64,000 nt of DNA from Escherichia coli. Its GTDB lineage: Bacteria; Pseudomonadota; Gammaproteobacteria; Enterobacterales; Enterobacteriaceae. The notes below the pieces were generated by a model. That model did not search any database. It worked only from the letters and a program-made list of their open reading frames with translations, and was not told where the DNA came from. The first letter of the stretch is position 1; every line of letters starts with the position of its first letter. The stretch is from assembly GCF_045037415.1 (NCBI RefSeq), contig NZ_CP173438.1; one strand, 5' to 3'. Made by a program: the position numbers and the translations under genes. Shown in pieces: positions 4,981-47,855 of this stretch.

Positions 4981-5056
4981 TGGCTCCTCTGACTGGACTC
5001 GAACCAGTGACATACGGATTAACAGTCCGCCGTTCTACCGACTGAACTACAGAGGA
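4981..5056 (-). tRNA. asnU: tRNA-Asn (GUU)
   Basis: Second reverse-complement copy of the 76-nt tRNA-Asn sequence. Confidence 0.9.
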
Positions 5057-5216: not shown

Positions 5217-6704
5217 ATGTGGTTTCACTTTCTGCAATTAAGGTCGGCTTTGAATATCTCCTCTGCTTTACGCCAGGTTGTTCACGGCACTCGCTGGCAC
5301 TCTAAACGCAAGAGCTACAAAGTGTTGTTCTGGCGCGAGATAACCCCGCTTGCTGTTCCTATCTTCATGGAGAACGCCTGTGTCCTGTTGATGGGGGTCC
5401 TGAGCACTTTTCTGGTCAGCTGGCTGGGAAAAGATGCGATGGCCGGCGTGGGGTTGGCGGACAGCTTCAATATGGTCATTATGGCTTTTTTTGCAGCTAT
5501 CGATCTTGGTACTACTGTCGTTGTAGCATTTAGTCTCGGTAAGCGAGATCGACGACGAGCGAGGGTGGCGACGCGGCAGTCATTGGTGATCATGACGTTG
5601 TTTGCCGTACTGTTGGCAACGCTAATTCATCATTTTGGCGAACAAATTATTGATTTCGTCGCGGGTGATGCCACGACAGACGTTAAAGCACTGGCGTTGA
5701 CTTATCTGGAGCTGACCGTATTCAGTTATCCAGCAGCTGCCATCACTCTTATTGGTAGCGGGGCACTTCGTGGTGCAGGGAATACGAAAATACCGCTACT
5801 GATTAACGGTAGCCTGAATATTCTTAATATTATTATTAGCGGCATATTGATTTACGGCCTTTTCTCCTGGGCGGGACTGGGATTTGTCGGGGCTGGGTTG
5901 GGTTTAACCATTTCTCGTTATATTGGCGCAGTTGCAATTTTGTGGGTGCTGGCGATTGGTTTTAATCCTGCGCTAAGGATTTCGTTAAAGAGCTATTTTA
6001 AACCGCTGAATTTTAGCATTATCTGGGAAGTCATGGGGATTGGTATTCCAGCGAGTGTCGAATCAGTGTTATTTACCAGTGGTCGGTTATTAACCCAAAT
6101 GTTCGTTGCCGGGATGGGGACCAGCGTTATTGCCGGAAATTTTATCGCGTTCTCAATTGCGGCTCTTATCAACTTACCCGGAAGTGCGCTCGGTTCTGCT
6201 TCTACGATCATTACAGGCCGAAGGTTGGGGGTAGGGCAGATAGCGCAAGCAGAGATTCAGTTGCGGCATGTGTTCTGGCTGTCCACTCTTGGATTAACGG
6301 CCATCGCCTGGCTAACGGCTCCCTTTGCCGGGGTTATGGCATCGTTTTACACCCAGGATCCACAGGTTAAACACGTCGTTGTGATTCTGATTTGGCTAAA
6401 TGCTTTATTTATGCCTATTTGGTCCGCCTCATGGGTGCTACCCGCTGGATTTAAAGGTGCTCGTGATGCCCGTTACGCCATGTGGGTTTCGATGTTGAGC
6501 ATGTGGGGTTGTCGGGTTGTAGTCGGTTATGTGCTGGGAATCATGCTTGGCTGGGGTGTGGTTGGTGTCTGGATGGGAATGTTTGCCGACTGGGCTGTGC
6601 GGGCCGTGCTGTTTTACTGGCGAATGGTTACTGGACGTTGGCTATGGAAATACCCTCGATCCGAGCCGCAAAAGTGTGAAAAAAAGCCAGTTGTGTCGGA
6701 ATAA
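5217..6704 (+). CDS. yeeO: MATE-family multidrug/flavin efflux transporter YeeO
   Basis: Polytopic membrane protein with MATE-like repeats; track ORF starts at 5064, but the start at 5217 (MWFHF...) gives the 495-aa length recalled for YeeO; start uncertain. Confidence 0.8.
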   Translation: MWFHFLQLRSALNISSALRQVVHGTRWHSKRKSYKVLFWREITPLAVPIFMENACVLLMGVLSTFLVSWLGKDAMAGVGLADSFNMVIMAFFAAIDLGTTVVVAFSLGKRDRRRARVATRQSLVIMTLFAVLLATLIHHFGEQIIDFVAGDATTDVKALALTYLELTVFSYPAAAITLIGSGALRGAGNTKIPLLINGSLNILNIIISGILIYGLFSWAGLGFVGAGLGLTISRYIGAVAILWVLAIGFNPALRISLKSYFKPLNFSIIWEVMGIGIPASVESVLFTSGRLLTQMFVAGMGTSVIAGNFIAFSIAALINLPGSALGSASTIITGRRLGVGQIAQAEIQLRHVFWLSTLGLTAIAWLTAPFAGVMASFYTQDPQVKHVVVILIWLNALFMPIWSASWVLPAGFKGARDARYAMWVSMLSMWGCRVVVGYVLGIMLGWGVVGVWMGMFADWAVRAVLFYWRMVTGRWLWKYPRSEPQKCEKKPVVSE

Positions 6705-6804
6705 ACGACAAAATGCAGATTATTTCAGCAAACGATTTCAAATTTAAAAAACAGGCTTTGACATTGTGGGTGGGCATCGCTAATATTCGCCTCGTTCTCA
6801 CGAT

Positions 6805-6880
6805 TCCTCTGTAGTTCAGTCGGTAGAACGGCGGACTGTTAATCCGTATGTCACTGGTTCGAGTCCAGTCAGAGGAGCCA
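6805..6880 (+). tRNA. asnW: tRNA-Asn (GUU)
   Basis: Direct 76-nt tRNA-Asn sequence on the plus strand; in inverted orientation relative to asnU, flanking yeeO. Confidence 0.9.
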
Positions 6881-6943
6881 AATTTTAGTTTTGAGACATC
6901 TCTATGAGTCTCAGGACAGTTAAAAAATAAAAATTATTTTTAC

Positions 6944-6977
6944 CCGGTCACTTTGTAAAAAAGTGGCCGGGTTTTTG
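6944..6977 (+). terminator. Putative rho-independent terminator after asnW
   Basis: Hairpin cccggtcactttgtaaaaaagtggccggg followed by ttttt. Confidence 0.5.
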
Positions 6978-7333
6978 ATTTCTGTGTTTCGTGCGCTTAA
7001 TCGAGTCTCACGCTTCAGTGAGCAAATTGCCCCTCCCCAACAGACATCACGATTCACAAGGTCAAAAATTCTGTTCCATGAAGTACCGTACAAAGATAAA
7101 GAGAAAAATGCCTTATGCGGGATGTAGCTGTCGCGTCTTTATCGGGAAACTATACGTAATTGCCACTTTGTCTTCGGTAATCAGAAAAAGAAGACCTGCC
7201 ATTTTAATAAATATTATTTCTCTGGGAACGGGGATTTTTTATAAGCAATATGACGAGTTAAACATTATATTTTTATAAGGATTATATGAGATTAAAGAAA
7301 TCTGCCATAAAGACAGATTTCTTTAACATATAA

Positions 7334-8392: not shown

Positions 8393-9847
8393 TTATCGGA
8401 ACGGCGGCTCATTAAAGGTTCGTAATTTACGTGAATGCAGTCGGTCGCCTTCTGCGCGCAGCAAATCGATCGCCCGAATGCCAATTTGCAGGTGTTCGGA
8501 AATAGCGCCTTCATAAAAACGGTTAGCCTGGCCGGGAAGCTTAATCTCACCATGTAACGGTTTATCTGAAACACACAGTAGTGTCCCGTATGGCACGCGG
8601 AAACGATATCCTTGCGCGGCAATGGTTGCACTTTCCATATCAATTGCTACGGCCCGGCTTAAGTTAAAACGAAGTGCAGAAGCTGAGTAACGTAACTCCC
8701 AGTTCCTGTCATCTGTGGTTACCACCGTGCCAGTACGTAACCGCTGTTTGACTTCTTCACCAGGCCTGCCGCTGACTAACTTGGTAGCGTCATAAAGCGC
8801 ACGTTGCACTTCAGCAATGCTCGGAATAGGAATATCGGGCGGCAGAACCGCATCAAGAACGTGGTCATCGCGTAAATAAGCGTGTGCAAGGACATAATCT
8901 CCAATGGCCTGGCTTTCACGTAATCCGCCACAGTGACCAATCATCAACCAGACATCCGGGCGTAGCACTGCCAGATGATCGCAGATGGTTTTAGCATTGG
9001 ACGGTCCCACGCCAATATTCACCAGAGTAATACCCTGACCATCAGCGGTAATTAAATGCCATGCTGGCATCTGGTGTTTTTTCCATGCAAGGTCGGAAAT
9101 GGCTTCTTCTGGCGCTTCGGTTTCGGCAGTGATCCAGTTCCCGCCAGCACAAGAAAGGGCAATGTAGGGACTATCAGGATCGAGGATCTGGCTGCATCCC
9201 CAACGAACGAATTCATCCACATAACGTGTGTAGTTGGTAAACAAGACGAACGGTTGAAAATGTTCTACTGGCGTACCGGTATAATGGCGCAACCGTGCGA
9301 GGGAAAAATCAACCCGGCGAGCATCAAAATGCGATAGCGGGGAGAATTCCGTTGGATGATAAATGCCGTCTGCAGTTTCATCGCCAATTTGCGCCAGTTC
9401 TGTTGTCGGGAAGTAGCGAGTTAACCCAGCGCTCATTGAGCGATCAAGTGTCAATTCAGAGCCATCGATGACATAAGGATAAGGGATTTCATGCTGCGAG
9501 GGTTGCACCGAGATATGCGCACCATAATCCTGATACAGCAACGTAAGTTGTTCATTGAGATACGAACGAAAGAGAGTAGGGCGAGTAATCGTGGTGGTGT
9601 AGCTGCCTGCGTGGGTAAAACGACCAAATGCGCGCGTTTTGGGGGGATTAGTTGTGCTACCGTCCCAGGTTACGGTCAGTGATGGATAGACAAAAAGACC
9701 TTGTTTGCGGGCGTTTTCATCAGGTAATTCGCCACTTGTAATATATTTGCCAATGGCGTTGCGTAAAGCAACTACAGATTGCTCATACAGCGCGTCGAGT
9801 TTATCCAGTGCCTGAGCTGGGGTCAGACCGGAGCCCTTATTATTCAT
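8393..9847 (-). CDS. amn: AMP nucleosidase
   Basis: Start at MNNKGSGLTPAQALDKLDALYEQS gives 484 aa; AGGAG-like RBS upstream; the track ORF (to 10003) has a 52-codon N-terminal extension that is probably not translated. Confidence 0.9.
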   Translation of the reverse strand: MNNKGSGLTPAQALDKLDALYEQSVVALRNAIGKYITSGELPDENARKQGLFVYPSLTVTWDGSTTNPPKTRAFGRFTHAGSYTTTITRPTLFRSYLNEQLTLLYQDYGAHISVQPSQHEIPYPYVIDGSELTLDRSMSAGLTRYFPTTELAQIGDETADGIYHPTEFSPLSHFDARRVDFSLARLRHYTGTPVEHFQPFVLFTNYTRYVDEFVRWGCSQILDPDSPYIALSCAGGNWITAETEAPEEAISDLAWKKHQMPAWHLITADGQGITLVNIGVGPSNAKTICDHLAVLRPDVWLMIGHCGGLRESQAIGDYVLAHAYLRDDHVLDAVLPPDIPIPSIAEVQRALYDATKLVSGRPGEEVKQRLRTGTVVTTDDRNWELRYSASALRFNLSRAVAIDMESATIAAQGYRFRVPYGTLLCVSDKPLHGEIKLPGQANRFYEGAISEHLQIGIRAIDLLRAEGDRLHSRKLRTFNEPPFR

Positions 9848-9948
9848 GTGTGTCTCCTGTTCCATACAATTACCGCACATCCGATAGTATGTCACAGGAA
9901 TGTGAAACAAAAGTATAAGGCGAAGATCGGATGATCTTCGCCAGGCTA

Positions 9949-11265
9949 TCACGAGCGTTGATTGTCTTTCATCAATAAAGCGGTCATTGCAGAAATCAGG
10001 CATCCAGCCAGCAAATAAATGGCGACGCTATGCCAGTTCCCGGCAAAGTAAGTGATGAGTGCAGCGGCAATAAAAGGTGTAAATCCACCGCCAACCACAC
10101 TGGCAACCTGATAACCGACTCCAGCACCACTGTAGCGATAACTGGCACCAAACATTTCGGTAAACATCGGTTGTTGCACACACACCACCATGTCATGCGC
10201 AATGTTTGCCAGCATTATGGAGAAGAAAACTATCCAGAAAATAGATTGTGCTTCAAGCGCCATAAAGAAAGGAAATGCGCTCAACGTTCCGATCAACGCG
10301 CCTGTAATATAAACCCTGCGCCGACCAAAACGATCGGCAAGCCAGGCAAAACAGGGAATTGTCAGGCAGCTTAATCCACCTACCAGCAAACCAATATTAA
10401 GGAAAAGTTCGCGCGGTAACCCCATATTCTGGGTTGAATAATTAAGTGCAAAGGCAGTAACAATGTACATCGTCAGCAACTCGCACAGTCGTAGTGCAAT
10501 AATCTTCAGGAAAGCACCGGGATGTCGTAACAGAGCTTCGATAACCGGGATGCGTTTTTTCGCGGCCGCTTGATTATGTTGCTGTTGTTCAAATTCCGCG
10601 GACTCCTCCATGCCATTGCGCACCCACAATGCTCCCAGTACCAGTACGATGCTAAACAGGAAAGGAATGCGCCAGCCCCAGCTTAAAAACTGTTCGTCAG
10701 TCGTCATCATACTGATCAATGAAACCAGTCCGGTTGAAAGCAGTAAACCTACACCGTAGCCAACTTGTACACCGCTACTGTAAAAGGCTTTTTTATTTTT
10801 CGGCGCACTTTCAACGGAAAGCAACGCTGCGCCTCCCCATTCGCCGCCGACGGCAAATCCCTGAATGGCACGCAGTGTCACCAGCAAAATAGGTGCCCAC
10901 CACCCAATGGTCGAGAATGAAGGAAGAATACCAATTAAGGCTGTCGCGATGCCCATCATCCAGACGGTCAGCATTAACATGCGCTTACGTCCCAGTCGGT
11001 CGCCAAAGTGACCGAAAATGACACCGCCGAGCGGTCGGAAAAGGAAGCCGACACCAAAGGTGGCAAATGCGGCGAGCGTTCCCATCGCCGGGCTTACTTG
11101 CGGGAAAAACTCGCGATTAAACACCAGTGCGGCGGTAATGCCATAGAGTAGAAAATCATACCAGTCGACGACGGCACCAGCGAAACTGCCTAACGCAGCT
11201 CGTCGGGCGCGACTTAACGAAAGCGTCCCTTCATCGGGACGAGTGGAGATGAGCGTGGAGTCCAT
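9949..11265 (-). CDS. shiA: Shikimate transporter (MFS)
   Basis: 438-aa 12-TM MFS protein starting MDSTLISTRPDEGTLSLSRARRAALGSFAG; synteny amn-shiA. Confidence 0.9.
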   Translation of the reverse strand: MDSTLISTRPDEGTLSLSRARRAALGSFAGAVVDWYDFLLYGITAALVFNREFFPQVSPAMGTLAAFATFGVGFLFRPLGGVIFGHFGDRLGRKRMLMLTVWMMGIATALIGILPSFSTIGWWAPILLVTLRAIQGFAVGGEWGGAALLSVESAPKNKKAFYSSGVQVGYGVGLLLSTGLVSLISMMTTDEQFLSWGWRIPFLFSIVLVLGALWVRNGMEESAEFEQQQHNQAAAKKRIPVIEALLRHPGAFLKIIALRLCELLTMYIVTAFALNYSTQNMGLPRELFLNIGLLVGGLSCLTIPCFAWLADRFGRRRVYITGALIGTLSAFPFFMALEAQSIFWIVFFSIMLANIAHDMVVCVQQPMFTEMFGASYRYSGAGVGYQVASVVGGGFTPFIAAALITYFAGNWHSVAIYLLAGCLISAMTALLMKDNQRS

Positions 11266-11516
11266 AATGATCCTGTTTGTACTGTCTTTTTATAATTAGT
11301 ATGGAAAAGGTAACTCACATTGCCGTCGATCTATAAACGAACCTTATGAGACTACCTCGACAGAGCGCATCTGCAAATGATTTTATGGCTGATTAGCGGC
11401 AACATGAAAAATTCGATGGAAGATGAAAGCGCAGGAGTTGCTGGTGTTGTTTAAGGATTAAGCAGAGGGCCCACAGGTTCGAGATATGAAACATAAAAGT
11501 CCGCATATGCACAAAA

Positions 11517-12632
11517 TTGCACCCTGATGATTCTGATAGACTGCATTGCATTATAACCAGTAGGGAGGCGAGGTTAGTTATGTTTTTAGTATCATTGTTG
11601 AGACGTATTGCATTTAGTTACTACGATTATAAAACTTATAATTTTAATATTGAAAAAACAGACTTTGTTGTCATACATATTCCCGATCAGATTGGCGATG
11701 CTATGGCCATCTTTCCTGTTATTCGGGCGCTTGAATTGCATAAAATTAAGCATCTATTAATTGTTACGTCGACAATTAATTTAGAAGTCTTTAATGCGCT
11801 CAAACTTGAACAGACTAAATTAACATTAGTCACAATGACTATGCAGGATCACGCAACATTAAAAGAAATAAAAGATTTAGCGAAGAACATAACACTGCAA
11901 TATGGTACGCCGGATCTTTGTATAGAGGCGATGCGTAAAAAGAACCTGAAAACGATGATATTTATCAGTCAGTTGAAAGCAAAAACGAATTTCCAGGTCG
12001 TCGGTTTAACCATGAAGTGCTATTCCCCTTTGTGTAAGAACGCGTCCCGGATGGATCAGAATCTCCGGGCTCCTGTACCCATGACATGGGCATTTATGAT
12101 GCGTGAGGCGGGTTTTCCGGCAGTCAGGTCAATATATGAATTGCCATTAAGCGATGATGTACTCGATGAGGTACGCGAGGAAATGCGATCGTTAGGATCT
12201 TACATTGCGCTCAATTTAGAAGGTAGCTCGCAGGAACGTACATTTTCATTATCGATTGCAGAAAATCTAATAGCAAAAATTCAAAGTGAAACAGATATTC
12301 CAATAGTGATCGTTTATGGACCCAAAGGGGAAGATAAAGCCAGGGCATTAGTGGATTGTTATAATAATGTCTACCGTTTATCCTTATCACCCTCGATTAA
12401 ACGTTCAGCAGCAATCATAAAAGATGCTTATATTGCAATAACTCCTGACACCTCAATATTACATATGGCAAGTGCCTATAATACCCCTGTTGTTGCAATT
12501 TATGCTGATTACAAAACGCGATGGCCCGCAATGGCCGATGTTTCGGAGTCAGTCGTCGTTGGGCAAAAAATTGACAATATAAGTCTGGATGAATTCGCAA
12601 AGGCATTAAAAAGTGTTTTGGCGAGAATTTGA
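11517..12632 (+). CDS. yeeL: Putative glycosyltransferase family 9 (heptosyltransferase-like) protein YeeL; appears intact here
   Basis: 371-aa ORF (possible true start at the ATG 63 nt downstream, preceded by GGGAGG) at the position between shiA and yeeJ; GT9 assignment is by recall, not computed. Confidence 0.65.
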   Translation: MHPDDSDRLHCIITSREARLVMFLVSLLRRIAFSYYDYKTYNFNIEKTDFVVIHIPDQIGDAMAIFPVIRALELHKIKHLLIVTSTINLEVFNALKLEQTKLTLVTMTMQDHATLKEIKDLAKNITLQYGTPDLCIEAMRKKNLKTMIFISQLKAKTNFQVVGLTMKCYSPLCKNASRMDQNLRAPVPMTWAFMMREAGFPAVRSIYELPLSDDVLDEVREEMRSLGSYIALNLEGSSQERTFSLSIAENLIAKIQSETDIPIVIVYGPKGEDKARALVDCYNNVYRLSLSPSIKRSAAIIKDAYIAITPDTSILHMASAYNTPVVAIYADYKTRWPAMADVSESVVVGQKIDNISLDEFAKALKSVLARI

Positions 12633-12759
12633 GGCAGTACTTATGCATAGTAATGCCGATCTGTTATGAACGGTGGTGTCATCAATACTCTGAGGCTGGT
12701 CAATCATCACAGAAAACCAGCCTTTGGATCAAAGCAATACTCACCGAAAATGATCATAG

Positions 12760-15657
12760 TCACACCGAACGCGATTCAGGAGGAACTGTTTGGTAAATAG
12801 CACCACCGGATCTTGGGGGCGCTGTGATTATTACAGTATTGCTATCACCGTCATTTTTGAATGTCACTTTACCAGTAGCATCAACGCCTACCCAGGAGGC
12901 CGAGCTTGAAAACGAATAATCAGCCGCCGTTTTTCCTGGTGCAAAGTTGTCATTATTCAACTGATAATACGCCCCGGTAAATCCCTGCGAAGGGAATGAA
13001 GCTGTCGGTAGGTTTGCACTATTCACTGACACTGTACCCGTCATTGGTCTGGTTTCCGCGCTAATGAATTCTATCGTGGTACTCAGACCCGCCTGATGAA
13101 CACCATTCAATACGGGGATCAGCGTTGCGATACCCTCTCCGCCTCCTGTAACAGTAGCTTTGTAATCACCGTTGATATTTTGACTGTAATCAATTGCGCT
13201 AATTTTCATATAGGGCACGTTTGTACCTGATTGCACAAATTCTATCCCTTAAGAAACTTTGATCGGATTGCCTGATATATCGTGCAGAACAAGATGTAGC
13301 TCAGCACTATCGGTAAAGTCCCCTTTCAGTGATGACTGGTTGTTCTTAAGGATGGACTGCGAGGCGTCTGCTGGGCCTGCCACTAGCGATATATCTACTG
13401 TTTGCATTCCACCTGCGCTTATGACTGCGCTTACAGTGACGCTCCCTGTTATCGCTCATCTCACGTTTGTTGTCGCGATTCCGTTTTGATCGGTCACGGC
13501 TGTTAATGACGTTAATGTGGTGGAGCCGCTTTTTAAGGCGAAGTACACAGTGAGACCTTCGATCAGGTTACCACTGCCATCCTCAACCGTTGCCTTTAAG
13601 GTACTTAAATCACTGTTGGTGGCGGCGATAGTCGACGGATCAGCGATAAAGCTAGCAACATGTGCGGTGCTTGGGTTGCCAGTAACCTTCACGGTTGTCT
13701 GTGTCTGTATTGTGACGCCGTTATGGAACGATGCAGTCACCGTATATGTACCGACTTTATTGCTGGTCAGAACGACTGGAGCCTGATCTGAAGAGTTGGT
13801 TCTCACTTTTCCGCCACTTAACGTCGCACCTTCTAGCGTTACGCTAAAGTTGATGACCTGACCCTCCACTGGAGTGCCATTTGCAGAGGTTAGCGTTGCC
13901 GTCAGAGTAGCGCCTTTAGGAGCATTGACACCGATAAGCGGACTGGACGTGAGTGTCAGTTTTTCATCAATAGCCTCCAGTTGTTTCTCAAGTGAAGCTC
14001 CATTCGCTAGGGATGCTTTTACAGTATACGAGCCGTTTCTTTCAGACGTCATGGTGACCTCGGCTACTCCCTGCGTATTAGTAGAGACCGTGTTCTGGCT
14101 GATGATCATTTGCGAGGATGGCGCTGCACTGAATGTCGCGGGTTGATGCGTCACCGGGTTGCCAAACTGGTCGTTAACGTGAGCTTTAACTGCTATGTCT
14201 TGTGCGACCATGACCTGACCTTCAGGTATCTCCTGACTGGTAATCGTCGCAGAATTAACATCTACCTTGGCATTCAGTAATCGCGAGATGACTTCAGTAG
14301 GTTTATCTGCCAGAGAGGCTGAAACTGTTTTTAGTCCGACCTCGGTGCTTGTCACAAGAATTTCAGCAAAAACCTGATCATCCGTTTCAACGCTGGTGCT
14401 GCTTAGCGTGACGGAGGTTCCACGGAAATTAACTTTTATACCTTCTACTGGGTTGCCGTTTCCATCAGTCACTGTTGCTTGTAGCCTGGTCATTCCAATG
14501 TTATTGGCGATGAAATTGTCCTCGGTAACGTTAAGATTAACCTGCGCAGTGAGCGTATCCGCAGTAAAGTTCACCACCAACTGCTCACTCTTACCGCCAA
14601 CCATCGATGCTGTCACGGTATGAGCGCCTGCTTTTGTACCTTTCAGCGTGACTTTCGCTTTGCCATCGGCATCAGTAACCGCTTTGTCGCCATCGCTCAG
14701 CGTGAAGTTCGCCTTCACATCTTCCGGTAGAGTAAATGTTACCTCAGTGTTGGCTATCGCATTGCCCTCTGTATCAGCGACGGTGCTGTTAGTGTCGTGA
14801 GATCGTTATTGTCGGCAATCACCGGATCCTTCGAGGCTGCCAGCGTGATTTCAGCATTCGTGACGTTCGGCACATAGTTCACTGTTTGTTGCATCGAATC
14901 GCCATTTTCGAGGGTTGCCGTCACGGGAGTTCTTCAGGCTGAAATCTTCATCCACGCCCAGCGTGATTCTTGCGGTACCGAAGCGGCTTAACCAGTCTGT
15001 CATTACCCCTGAAGCCTGAGAAGAGGCCCATCCACGTGCTATGTTTGCCGCTTGCTCGCTGTTCATATCTTCGGCGAGCAGAGATCCAATTAGCTGTGAA
15101 GTACTGGCTATCTGTTGCTCAAGGTTGCCACTGCTGTTACCCGGCGGCGGGGTTAAATTTTTTTCACTAACTTGTGCCTGGACATCCAGTTCATCACCCG
15201 GGCGGACATTACGAACAAACGTACGAAACTGGTTGAGTTTGCGTAACAGGGGGGTATCTATAATTTGTTGCACAGGACAAATATATCTGGCTTCTGTACA
15301 GAGTCTTAAATTTTGACCATAAATAAAACCGTCACTGTCAAGCATGCATAGTTTATCAAGTAGGTCTCCCACAAACTGCCTGAATTTTATTTTTCCATTA
15401 AAAGTTTGTATCTTCTTAAGTATCACAGGAGACTGGAAATAGATCGATAGTAGGATGTTGCCACTCAAGGCATGACGATAAATATCGCTAGGAGTAATTT
15501 TTTGTTTTATGGCTTTGGTAGTGATCTCAACTGCTTCCGTTATAGTGACCCATGTTGACATATAATGAGTTATAAGCAATGGCTGATATTTTTTTGACAT
15601 AATATTATCTCCTTCTACACAACAATTCGTTCCGTTAAGGAAAAAGATTGGTGTCAC
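12760..15657 (-). pseudogene. yeeJ: yeeJ-like inverse autotransporter adhesin remnant: large internal deletion plus frame breaks
   Basis: Three consecutive minus-strand ORFs (14851-15657, 13456-14718, 12760-13236) carry LysM-like N-terminal and Big-repeat C-terminal segments in different frames; total about 2.9 kb versus about 7 kb recalled for intact yeeJ. Confidence 0.65.
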
Positions 15658-16213
15658 AAGTATTTATTTATGATTAATCAGAGGGTTTATGACAGAGAAA
15701 AGGATGTATATTTCTGAGTAAACATGTACAGGCCTATGGGGTGACTATTTAATGAGTAAATGCCGAATGATTTTCGGGGTGATGATTATAACTTGAGGAA
15801 AAATCCCAGCGTGGTTTGAGTAGTGTACCTGAGTGATATTTGTGTTATGTATGCATTGATTGTAGCAGAATAAATATAGTTCAGGCTAGTATAGTTTATG
15901 GTAGCTATGAGAATATATAATCTATTTTACCTATAAAATAATTTATATGTATGGGGTTGTTTTTTTAGGTTGTTTGTCTGTGCTTTTATATTCTGGAGAT
16001 GTGCCTTGTATATAGGATTGTTTGTTGGTTGTATTTTTTAATGTTGCACTGTTGTGAATTTTTATTTTGATATGATTATTTCTTTAGTATAAGGAGAGAA
16101 AGGAACGAGAAAGTTAAATCTATTTATCCTAATCGCAATTTCATTGTTTAAATAATCACTATGGATTAATATTTTTGCGACTCTGCTGAGTTACTGGTTT
16201 TAACTAGTGGTGT

Positions 16214-16242
16214 AAAAGGGATACCTTTTCGGTATCCCTTTT
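16214..16242 (-). terminator. Terminator hairpin downstream of fyuA
   Basis: Inverted repeat aaaagggataccttttcggtatccctttt next to the fyuA stop. Confidence 0.5.
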
Positions 16243-16249
16243 ACAATAA

Positions 16250-18271
16250 TCAGAAGAAATCAATTCGCGTATTGATACCGACGGTGCGACCCATATTGAC
16301 CTGCGCGACGGCGCTGCTGCCGTTCATGTAGCCATAGGTACGGTAACGACGGTCGAACAGGTTATCGACATAGACGGAAATGTTCATCCGTTCAGTCGCC
16401 TGCCAGCCCAGGCTGCTGTCCAGGGTGGCATAGGTGCCTTGCCGCAACTGGTTGTCGCCATCGAAATAATGCGGCCCGACCAGATTAACCGCCAGTCGGG
16501 GCATCAGTGCGCCATAGCGCGTATCAATCACGCCGTTCACGCTGCTTCCCGCGCCATAACGTGGTACGAACGGCACCCGGTTACCGTGATACAACTCACT
16601 GTCATTGGTGAATTCGGAACGGATCACGTTGCCATTGATATCCCATGACCAGCCTGGCGCAAACCGCCACTTCGCTTCAAGCTCAACGCCGGTGGCGTCG
16701 GCTTTACCCGCATTGCTTAATGTCTGCATCCCGACCGGGCCAGAGTAAAGCTGCATGTCTTTGGTGTGGGTATAAAACGTCGCGGCTTGCAGCGTGACGT
16801 CAGCGGTTTCGTAGCGGGTGCCAAGTTCATAGTTGATGGATTTCTCGGCGACGAACGGTTTGGCATCAAGACCCGCAGTAGGCACGATGTTGTACCCGGA
16901 AGGTTTATATCCCTGGGCTACACGGGTATACACTCTCCAGTCATCGGTCAGCATATAGCCTGCGGATAGCTGCCCGAGCACCTGATCGTCATTGCTCTTA
17001 CCCTGGTCGCCAAACGGGTTGCCGAGCATGCTGCCGTGATATTGTGTACTGGATTTATCATGCGAGAAGCGCACGCCGCCGCCGATATCAAAACGATCGG
17101 TTAAATGCCAGGTCAGGTCACTGTATGCGGCCAGCGTTTCAGCGGTGGTATAGCCGGTACTGCTTAAATAAGGCATTGTCGGCATGTCGTAGGCTGAATT
17201 TAACTTCTCGCGGGTGTTCTGCCGGTACAGCCCAAACACCATATCAACGGTACGCGCATCGCCCAGGGTTGCAGCGCGCAGCTCCTGCACATCCTGATTC
17301 CAGCGCTGAGGCATATTGACGATTAACGAACCGGAAGGGAAGGTGCGCGAATAATGCTGCTGCTGCCAGGCGCTGATCAGGTTGAAAACCCAGTCATCGG
17401 TGGTGTATTTCCCACTCAGGGTCTGGCTGTCAGTGCAGCGCCGCATGTACGGGTCTGGTGAACCATCGCTGATCGACAGCTTACGGCCCTTAATATCATT
17501 CCATCCCACATAGGCGTCCTGGGTGGCGCGGGTACATTCGCGTGAGGCGGCAAAGCCCATTTCCCAGGGCTGATCGTCCGGCGCCAGACGCAGTTTCACA
17601 TTCCCTATGCTGGCGCGGGTGCCGCCTAAGTCATCGCTTCCCGTCGCGGGGTTAATCATGTCGCCGTCATCAACTTGGCGTAACAGGGTGACGCTGCCGT
17701 ACAGCAGGCCATCCTGAATGGGGCCGCTCAGGTTGAACTTACTTCGATAACTGTCGCGGCTACTGACGCCGCCTTCAATATAGCCGCGCGGCGTGCTGTC
17801 CGGCTGCTGGGTGACGATGTTGATGATCCCGCCCTGAGCGCTTTTGCCATATAACGTTCCCTGTGGGCCTCGCAGCAACTCCACGCTTTGCACATCGGTA
17901 AGCGCCTGGATGGTGTTGGTGGAAAGCTGAGGGACGCCATCGACATACAGGGTGACGGCGGGGTTATAGAAGTCCTGCGCTGAAGAGACGCCGCGTAGCG
18001 AGATCGTCGAAAAAAGCATGTTGCCGCTATTTTCAATATTGAGCCCGGGCAAGACTCTGGGGAGTTTGTCGCTGGCGGTGACGCCGGCGTCGCTTAATTC
18101 CGGCGCGCTGACAACAGTAGATGAGACGTTGTTGGCTGATGCCGAGCGGGAAGATTGTTTACTGGCGGTAACCACCAGCGTGCTTTCGTCTTGCTGTGAA
18201 GTCTGGGCATTAGCAATGGCGGGGAGCAATAATCCCCCCAAGGCCAGAGGATAAAGCCGTGTCATTTTCAT
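16250..18271 (-). CDS. fyuA: TonB-dependent outer-membrane receptor for ferric yersiniabactin/pesticin
   Basis: 673-aa ORF with signal peptide and a TonB-dependent-receptor C-terminal ...RIDFF motif; position at the end of the ybt cluster. Confidence 0.9.
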   Translation of the reverse strand: MKMTRLYPLALGGLLLPAIANAQTSQQDESTLVVTASKQSSRSASANNVSSTVVSAPELSDAGVTASDKLPRVLPGLNIENSGNMLFSTISLRGVSSAQDFYNPAVTLYVDGVPQLSTNTIQALTDVQSVELLRGPQGTLYGKSAQGGIINIVTQQPDSTPRGYIEGGVSSRDSYRSKFNLSGPIQDGLLYGSVTLLRQVDDGDMINPATGSDDLGGTRASIGNVKLRLAPDDQPWEMGFAASRECTRATQDAYVGWNDIKGRKLSISDGSPDPYMRRCTDSQTLSGKYTTDDWVFNLISAWQQQHYSRTFPSGSLIVNMPQRWNQDVQELRAATLGDARTVDMVFGLYRQNTREKLNSAYDMPTMPYLSSTGYTTAETLAAYSDLTWHLTDRFDIGGGVRFSHDKSSTQYHGSMLGNPFGDQGKSNDDQVLGQLSAGYMLTDDWRVYTRVAQGYKPSGYNIVPTAGLDAKPFVAEKSINYELGTRYETADVTLQAATFYTHTKDMQLYSGPVGMQTLSNAGKADATGVELEAKWRFAPGWSWDINGNVIRSEFTNDSELYHGNRVPFVPRYGAGSSVNGVIDTRYGALMPRLAVNLVGPHYFDGDNQLRQGTYATLDSSLGWQATERMNISVYVDNLFDRRYRTYGYMNGSSAVAQVNMGRTVGINTRIDFF

Positions 18272-46697: not shown

Positions 46698-46773
46698 TGG
46701 CTCCTCTGACTGGACTCGAACCAGTGACATACGGATTAACAGTCCGCCGTTCTACCGACTGAACTACAGAGGA
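46698..46773 (-). tRNA. asnT: tRNA-Asn (GUU); HPI attachment tRNA
   Basis: Fourth copy of the 76-nt tRNA-Asn sequence, about 160 bp from the island integrase gene. Confidence 0.9.
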
Positions 46774-47764: not shown

Positions 47765-47855
47765 GGAGAGATGCCGGAGCGGCTGAACGGACCGGTTCTC
47801 GAAAACCGGAGTGGGGGCAACTCCACCGGGGGTTCAAATCCCCCTCTCTCCGCCA
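47765..47855 (+). tRNA. serU: tRNA-Ser, long variable arm (serU-like)
   Basis: About 91 nt, ggagagatgccggagcggctgaacgg...ggttcaaatccccctctctccgcca; acceptor stem pairs and ends in CCA; integrase immediately downstream. Confidence 0.85.

Follow-up and report, generated by a model that had tools for sequence, protein, structure and literature searches.

Intact yeeL beside a decayed yeeJ in Escherichia coli: a GT9 glycosyltransferase gene and a scar at the border of the high-pathogenicity island, probably with unrelated histories

A stretch of 64,000 nucleotides of Escherichia coli (contig NZ_CP173438.1, assembly GCF_045037415.1; in the following the window) was investigated regarding the neighbouring genes yeeL and yeeJ at positions 11,517 to 15,657. 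Two unrelated histories probably meet at this locus. YeeL would be a transferase of glycosyltransferase family 9 (GT9) that acts on lipopolysaccharide (LPS) or another envelope glycan and has no relation to YeeJ, and the yeeJ sequence would be a remnant at the border of the high-pathogenicity island (HPI). The original prediction, made from the letters of the window alone, had likened the pair to Aah/AIDA-I and TibC/TibA, in which an autotransporter heptosyltransferase glycosylates the adjacent adhesin. Its observation of an intact yeeL next to a decayed yeeJ was confirmed, and the GT9 membership, the pseudogene state in K-12 and the independent variation of both genes were supported. The analogy to Aah and TibC did not hold.

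The yeeL gene comprises the following features:
11563 to 11568, plus strand: Shine-Dalgarno motif GGGAGG, read from the sequence, 11 nt upstream of the yeeL ATG.
11580 to 12632, plus strand: yeeL, intact open reading frame (ORF) for a GT9 glycosyltransferase of 350 amino acids (WP_000480517.1).

In the ORF list a single uninterrupted frame extends from TTG 11517 (371 amino acids) to 12632. The true start is ATG 11580, giving 350 amino acids, because GGGAGG precedes it, the N-termini of 18 homologues agree and WP_000480517.1 matches. The TTG start was rejected in its favour; the 21 upstream codons are an artefact of the mechanical ORF listing. The one intact ORF, predicted with 350 to 371 amino acids, was found accordingly, and the disruption of the gene in K-12 also proved correct. 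K-12 yeeL (b4497) lies at the same locus, likewise has 1053 bp and contains one in-frame stop at codon 235, which is TAA there and CAA in the window. Both alleles share 96% nucleotide identity, with 15 amino-acid differences besides the stop. The K-12 pseudogene is a separate, lineage-specific CAA-to-TAA mutation.

YeeL had also been supposed to be GT9-like, and this is supported by profiles and fold. The Pfam model PF01075 (GT9) matched with 29.9 bits at a cut-off of 22, covering residues 253-342 of the C-terminal domain only; relatives scored 28-52 bits. The AlphaFold 2 (AF2) model of YeeL (pLDDT 84.3, pTM 0.82) adopts a GT-B fold that resembles solved GT9 enzymes most. GT9 structures ranked first in the fold comparison, and among the solved folds those of LPS heptosyltransferases were the closest. 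With phmmer and with a profile of 19 YeeL-family sequences, searched against all chains of the PDB at E up to 10, only WaaC and WaaF were detected. All 19 family members matched the NCBIfam models of LPS heptosyltransferases I, II and III below threshold. Because the scores are far below the equivalog cut-offs of WaaC, WaaF and WaaQ, donor and acceptor are not readable from homology.

The residues R220, D290, T291 and H295 of YeeL paired in hhalign with K192, D261, T262 and H266 of WaaC, which we take to bind the nucleotide sugar. They are invariant in 19/19 family sequences, and the donor-binding motifs were also aligned with WaaF by phmmer. The alignment of the 19 sequences contains 106 invariant columns at 52-72% identity. 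In the N-terminal domain, which the sequence alignments do not reach, the invariant G39-D40 follows strand 29-34 of the model. In comparison with WaaC and WaaF (2GT1, 2H1H, 6DFE, 1PSW) and the GT9 protein 3TOV of Veillonella, the identity of YeeL is only 12-15%. YeeL differs from them by an extra N-terminal helix of about 27 residues and by an invariant Cys-containing loop at residues 142-162. This loop (window about 12003-12065) is the sole segment to which the model gives a pLDDT below 50, although it belongs to the most conserved parts of the family. The invariant residues C147, C152, S156, D159, Q160 and R163 are located in or near it, and the invariant C114 is nearby. With C114 close by, the loop may bind an acceptor or a metal as a feature particular to the YeeL subfamily.

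Aah and TibC belong to the bacterial autotransporter heptosyltransferases (BAHTs). YeeL shares with them (TibC, 4RAP) the GT-B-like catalytic core, and in E. coli the gene likewise adjoins that of a type V secreted adhesin. In structure and sequence, however, YeeL is closer to the LPS GT9 enzymes than to TibC. BAHTs carry an N-terminal beta-barrel (TibC 1-97), an iron finger and a beta-hairpin thumb as accessory modules; the iron finger of TibC is formed by the four conserved C-lobe cysteines C339, C342, C358 and C370, and the enzymes assemble to dodecamers and recognise 19-residue beta-helix repeats (PMC4358343). The beta-barrel is not present in the YeeL model, which opens with helix 2-13 followed by a classical Rossmann domain. 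A Cys4 iron finger is missing, too: C114, C147 and C152 belong to the N-domain, and the sole C-lobe cysteine, C260, is not conserved. No extra hairpin was found among the C-domain strands of the model, and TibC is longer than YeeL by 56 residues.

The searches were in agreement with this. In the PDB searches with phmmer and the family profile, TibC was not matched. The NCBIfam scan yielded models of LPS heptosyltransferases only and no match to the BAHT model TIGR04414, which we presume to be part of the library. A tblastn search of 72,556 plasmids, with E values up to 10, yielded no autotransporter heptosyltransferase. Ten GT9 matches of 380-405 amino acids, sought as BAHT control, were all LPS-type (10/10). 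The comparison with Aah/TibC that had been suggested as a check, by profile or structure, thus sided with the LPS GT9 enzymes, with matches to WaaC and WaaF and none to TibC. The likeness to Aah/AIDA-I and TibC/TibA fails on structure, motifs, substrate type and conservation of the gene neighbourhood.

It is very improbable that YeeL is a dedicated glycosyltransferase of the adjacent YeeJ, as Aah is for AIDA-I and TibC for TibA, and was orphaned here by loss of its substrate. The common core and the position beside an adhesin gene are what such an enzyme would have, but beta-barrel and conserved iron finger are lacking, no thumb insertion is apparent in the model, and no sequence or profile match to TibC or Aah was obtained. 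YeeJ is an inverse autotransporter with Ig-like Big_1 and invasin domains, whereas the substrates of BAHTs are AIDA-type beta-helix proteins with 19-residue repeats. None of the eight contexts of yeeL homologues outside E. coli contains an autotransporter gene, and yeeL is kept intact, with a dN/dS of 0.15, in 2054 genomes with a dead yeeJ. Furthermore, YeeJ of MG1655 is active in a recombinant K-12 strain, where it promotes biofilm formation (PMC5595812), and yeeL of K-12 is a pseudogene. Hardly to be expected at all is a protein O-glycosyltransferase distinct from the BAHTs, acting on intact YeeJ or other surface proteins. If true, this would be the first glycosylation system of an inverse autotransporter, and it would explain the adjacency of yeeL and yeeJ in E. 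coli.

The second gene of the pair consists of the following parts:
12784 to 12802, no strand: 19-bp filler, in place of 453 bp of K-12 sequence (blastn against K-12).
12793 to 14787, minus strand: yeeJ segment C, YeeJ amino acids about 1564-2229, with the Ig-like domains Big_1, Invasin_D3 and Invasin_D4.
14784 to 14924, minus strand: yeeJ segment B, YeeJ amino acids 1415-1461 (tblastn and blastn), in a reading frame different from that of segments A and C.
14923 to 15247, minus strand: yeeJ segment A, YeeJ amino acids 74-184, with the end of LysM, the linker and the first beta-barrel strands.
14851 to 15600, minus strand: chimeric ORF of 249 amino acids (WP_000039780.1), in RefSeq "inverse autotransporter beta domain-containing protein".
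15248 to 15600, minus strand: HPI-derived 5' part of the chimeric ORF, 117 codons, without K-12 match and without Pfam family.

A reduction of yeeJ to about 2.9 kb in three frames had been predicted. The decay is real; the size and the number of frames were corrected. In the blastn map against K-12, yeeJ-derived DNA is found at 12803-15247 only, which corresponds to 2445 nt or 35% of the 7020-nt K-12 gene, and the remnant is split into five ORF pieces across two reading frames. The retained parts are orthologous to the YeeJ gene of K-12 and UMN026 at 82-95% identity; the window copy differs from these by a frameshift and two stop codons. At the 5' end foreign DNA stands in place of the promoter and codons 1-73. 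The junction of segments A and B at 14924 is a deletion of 3693 nt (codons 185-1414), which shifts the frame and takes the beta-barrel and about nine Ig domains. A 1-nt indel was located near 14785. Segment C contains in-frame stops at 13456-13458 and 13249-13251 and has one 312-nt repeat unit fewer than K-12. The K-12 sequence displaced by the filler comprises yeeJ nt 6678-7020 (343 nt, C-type lectin domain) and 111 bp downstream.

Altogether, YeeJ amino acids 1-73, 185-1414 and 2230-2339 are gone, and of the Pfam domain IAT_beta only profile positions 3-64 of 279 are retained. The remnant does not have the signal peptide, LysM, full IAT beta-barrel and passenger in one frame that make a functional inverse autotransporter. 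Because of these losses, the frameshift and the two stop codons, its product cannot be secreted or anchored. An assembly artefact was ruled out by the identical junctions in 2054 independent complete genomes.

The region 15248-15657, formerly counted to yeeJ, stems from a hypothetical HPI gene, whose 5' part is joined in frame to yeeJ codons 74-184. WP_000039780.1 is composed of 117 codons of this HPI gene, the yeeJ codons 74-184 and an out-of-frame read-through, and its RefSeq product name is misleading. The N-terminus of the stub shares 96% identity with a hypothetical protein of Yersinia pestis; homologues occur in Klebsiella, Lonsdalea and Pectobacterium.

The decayed yeeJ represents a scar where the HPI has its truncated right border. 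The island is delimited by the following features:
15601 to 16249, no strand: AT-rich non-coding right end of the HPI with 31-35% GC, between the chimeric ORF and fyuA, without attR repeat (composition profile and sequence).
16250 to 18271, minus strand: fyuA, yersiniabactin receptor, last gene of the HPI (ORF list and RefSeq).
46698 to 46773, minus strand: asnT, tRNA-Asn, integration site of the HPI at the opposite end of the island (ARAGORN and K-12 gene order).

The gene order is that of K-12, mtfA-asnT-yeeJ-yeeL-shiA-amn, reversed, with the HPI between asnT and the yeeJ remnant. The island has about 31 kb, with asnT at one end and fyuA-ybtE adjoining the remnant at the other. In the ORF list, broken minus-strand ORFs run from 12760 to 15657, followed by fyuA and ybtE. 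No second 17-bp att repeat was detected at the right end of the HPI; in the window the repeat is confined to four tRNA-Asn genes. All characteristics of a yersiniabactin HPI at asnT with a truncated right border, namely asnT, fyuA-ybtE and the missing attR, were found. In its ends, its length, the lack of a second att repeat and the clonally shared flank, the island is a standard example of the known E. coli HPI, from which it does not differ. The four tRNA-Asn genes are the equivalents of asnV, asnU, asnW and asnT (2572-2647, 4981-5056, 6805-6880 and 46698-46773). All of them carry the identical 17-bp att core, and an island is located at asnT only.

The yersiniabactin island would have integrated at asnT, directly upstream of yeeJ. 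A deletion over its right border presumably took attR and yeeJ codons 1-73, along with the 3' end of a small ORF of the island. The 3.7-kb deletion, the frameshift, the two stop codons and the 3' deletion would be later lesions. Afterwards the scarred flank may have spread across E. coli with the island by homologous recombination, which would lead to the 38% of complete genomes that share these junctions with at least 99% identity. Schubert et al. (PMC2606025) showed that homologous recombination carries the HPI, along with the DNA beside it, through E. coli, and a flank shared clonally over many lineages is expected from this. Truncated yeeJ copies were already ascribed to the adjacent asnT/HPI recombination hotspot, and intact yeeJ was reported for about 40% of genomes (Martinez-Gil et al. 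2017, PMC5595812).

Along the lines of the pan-genome survey proposed with the original prediction, each gene was counted in 5426 complete E. coli genomes. yeeL was counted as present at a coverage of at least 80% and yeeJ as K-12-length at a coverage of at least 80% in one place. The stop allele of K-12 was counted by exact match to a 61-mer spanning the stop. The counts were:
yeeL covered to at least 80%: 4939 of 5426 genomes (91%).
Exact match to the 61-mer spanning the K-12 yeeL stop: 765 of 5426 (14%).
K-12-length yeeJ: 1665 of 5426.
Both scar junctions of the window: 2054 of 5426 (38%), with a best-match identity of at least 99% in 1955 records.

Sequence type 131 (ST131), avian pathogenic E. 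coli (APEC) O78 and an enterotoxigenic E. coli (ETEC) strain are among the carriers of the scar. Three of the four possible combinations of states were directly seen in genomes. Intact yeeL with decayed yeeJ occurs in the window and in ST131, both genes are intact in O157:H7, and a stopped yeeL with intact yeeJ was found in K-12 and the human stool isolate 510016. In E. coli an intact yeeL is the rule and not the exception, and its combination with the scarred yeeJ is the commonest single state of the locus in sequenced E. coli. The reciprocal states of the genes had been interpreted as a sign that they are not under joint selection. Their independent variation is supported by the three states, but relaxed joint selection is not the best account. 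Deletions of yeeJ at the HPI border and one lineage-specific nonsense mutation of yeeL explain the pattern better.

Insertions of IS1 or ISEc23 within a 5-kb stretch (11200-16300) were observed in several otherwise identical genomes. In some of these, yeeL is interrupted by IS1 and annotated as two or three fragments. Hence, independent losses of yeeL are under way in some HPI-positive lineages.

An improbable explanation is that yeeL in the window is open but a functionless relic, silent or drifting neutrally toward the state in K-12. The gene is AT-rich (35-42% GC in the composition profile) and looks horizontally acquired, and in a promoter scan of its 5' region no match above shuffled expectation was obtained. 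In about 14% of the genomes the gene was lost by the nonsense mutation and in some further ones by insertion of IS1, at no obvious cost. Between window and K-12, dN/dS of yeeL is 0.149 and exceeds the values of its neighbours shiA (0.043) and amn (0.009). A value of 0.15 still indicates purifying selection, and the 106 columns are invariant across genera in spite of identities of 52-72%. The gene is kept in 91% of the genomes and has a strong Shine-Dalgarno motif. A phenotype signal speaks against a relic as well: by transposon-directed insertion site sequencing (TraDIS) of the ST131 strain EC958, yeeL (EC958_2299) was among 30 genes with disruption enriched in hyper-motile cells, with a log2 fold change of 7.46 (PMC5425062). 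An ST131 genome has the genotype of the window with a dead yeeJ. Thus, the hyper-motility phenotype, if real, is independent of YeeJ.

Close homologues of YeeL are restricted to Enterobacterales, and 33 representatives of the family were found in an exhaustive profile search at E ≤1e-30. Their genes have different surroundings, and in the eight contexts outside E. coli no autotransporter gene was detected as neighbour:
Pseudocitrobacter: amn-shiA-yeeL-mtfA, no yeeJ.
Divergent Escherichia (L008-L010): hchA-yeeL-mtfA-shiA.
E. albertii: yeeL near ompW and yciA.
Another taxon: yeeL between maeB and the eut operon.
Rosenbergiella and Erwinia persicina: yeeL after unrelated genes of the major facilitator superfamily (MFS).
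Erwinia aphidicola CP188307.1 (L003, 8316-11764): yeeL homologue inside a degraded P2-like prophage.

In the divergent Escherichia, with a YeeL of 72% identity, yeeL is situated between hchA and mtfA, on the opposite side of mtfA from shiA. Because of this location, yeeL has held at least two positions around the hotspot within Escherichia. No yeeJ gene was called in this region. The homologue of E. aphidicola lies on the opposite strand between a tail-tube gene and a tail-fibre fragment, where sheath and fibre genes are expected. It looks like a one-off insertion, because no sequenced phage has a YeeL homologue. A phage moron as general origin was rejected with 0 homologues in 50,697 phage records and with the other Erwiniaceae copies outside prophages. 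A functional tie of yeeL to an MFS transporter (shiA or the MFS genes of Rosenbergiella and Erwinia) was also considered; the three transporters are mutually unrelated and the adjacency was judged coincidental.

Further contexts come from distant members of the family. P0136 (locus L014, 1955-4288) is a metagenomic fusion of 777 amino acids with an O-antigen-ligase domain of the Wzy_C/WaaL type and a YeeL-like GT9 domain. Its gene adjoins another one that fuses GT4 and polysaccharide-deacetylase domains. P0136 is an unusual link of core glycosylation and ligation in a single polypeptide. P0108 is surrounded by genes for GT4, GT9, GT2, two Wzy_C proteins, WecG and Bac_transf. P0115 and P0117 adjoin LPS-type GT8 genes, one of which has the LPS-specific domain Glyco_transf_8C. 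All informative distant members point to the assembly of LPS or lipooligosaccharide (LOS).

These contexts bear on the question whether YeeL transfers its sugar to an acceptor other than the LPS core, e.g. a surface protein, enterobacterial common antigen, capsule or a small molecule. We consider this unlikely, although several observations would fit it. yeeL is an orphan gene outside the waa cluster, YeeL scores far below the equivalog cut-offs of LPS heptosyltransferases, and the invariant but poorly modelled loop 142-162 with C147 and C152, specific for the family, lies in the predicted acceptor-binding domain. Unrelated MFS transporters adjoin the yeeL homologue in three contexts; as they are not related to each other, this adjacency is probably due to chance. 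An LPS acceptor is favoured by the four informative distant contexts, which are all of LPS or LOS type, and by the closest solved folds.

The reading of YeeL as an LPS or envelope-glycan transferase is preferred. yeeL would encode a functional protein of a GT9 subfamily that is small and uncharacterised, with fold and relatives of the LPS-core type. The enzyme is most likely cytoplasmic. Its C-terminal Rossmann domain is predicted to bind a nucleotide sugar, probably ADP-heptose, by R220, D290, T291 and H295. The sugar, probably heptose, would be transferred to an acceptor of the inner or outer LPS core or to another lipid-linked envelope glycan, and not to YeeJ.

Several points weigh against this reading. 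yeeL is an orphan outside the waa cluster in E. coli and in seven other enterobacterial contexts. The contexts in LPS clusters come from distant relatives (131-290 bits compared to 618 for the closest representative) and not from the enterobacterial clade. With TIGR02193, the best NCBIfam model, 39.1 bits were reached at an equivalog cut-off of 185.3, and the candidate N-terminal catalytic residue D40 (cf. D13 of WaaC) was placed by topology only. Fold, motifs, genomic contexts and purifying selection were demonstrated by the analysis; donor, acceptor and activity of YeeL are what we infer. To our knowledge, no published core structure of E. coli needs an extra GT9 enzyme. The states of yeeL and yeeJ were counted separately over the set of genomes. 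The Tn5 signal of yeeL in EC958 was not validated by a defined mutant (PMC5425062).

On the other side of yeeL, two genes were assigned:
8393 to 9847, minus strand: amn, AMP nucleosidase, 484 amino acids (RefSeq annotation).
9949 to 11265, minus strand: shiA, shikimate transporter, divergent neighbour of yeeL (ORF list and RefSeq at the identical locus).

The shiA region is collinear with K-12 at 97.2%. The mechanical amn ORF (8393-10003, minus strand) has 536 amino acids and overlaps the end of shiA; its extra upstream part is an artefact of the ORF listing. Beyond asnT, ARAGORN detected a 91-nt tRNA at 47765-47855 (plus strand) of undetermined identity, with the two-base anticodon call "cg". 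By its position it should be serU, tRNA-Ser(CGA), which is next to mtfA in K-12. For the identical sequence, the RefSeq annotations of strain SK1144 and one ST131 strain agree. They comprise a "glycosyltransferase family 9 protein" of 350 amino acids, the "inverse autotransporter beta domain-containing protein" of 249 amino acids and, for the yeeJ remnant, an "Ig-like domain-containing protein" pseudogene, which is frameshifted, with internal stop and both termini missing.

The locus itself is ordinary: it is already annotated in RefSeq, and the truncation of yeeJ was tied to the asnT/HPI hotspot in the literature. Regarding the HPI, only the exact map of the junctions to yeeJ and the chimeric stub ORF are added here. 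YeeL is a conserved GT9 protein in 91% of the complete E. coli genomes. It was never studied, because yeeL of the laboratory strain K-12 has a stop codon, and no paper on its function was found in the literature. If YeeL modifies LPS or an envelope glycan, descriptions of the cell envelope based on K-12 overlook a modification of which most natural isolates are capable. In that case, this modification could affect phage, serum or motility phenotypes.

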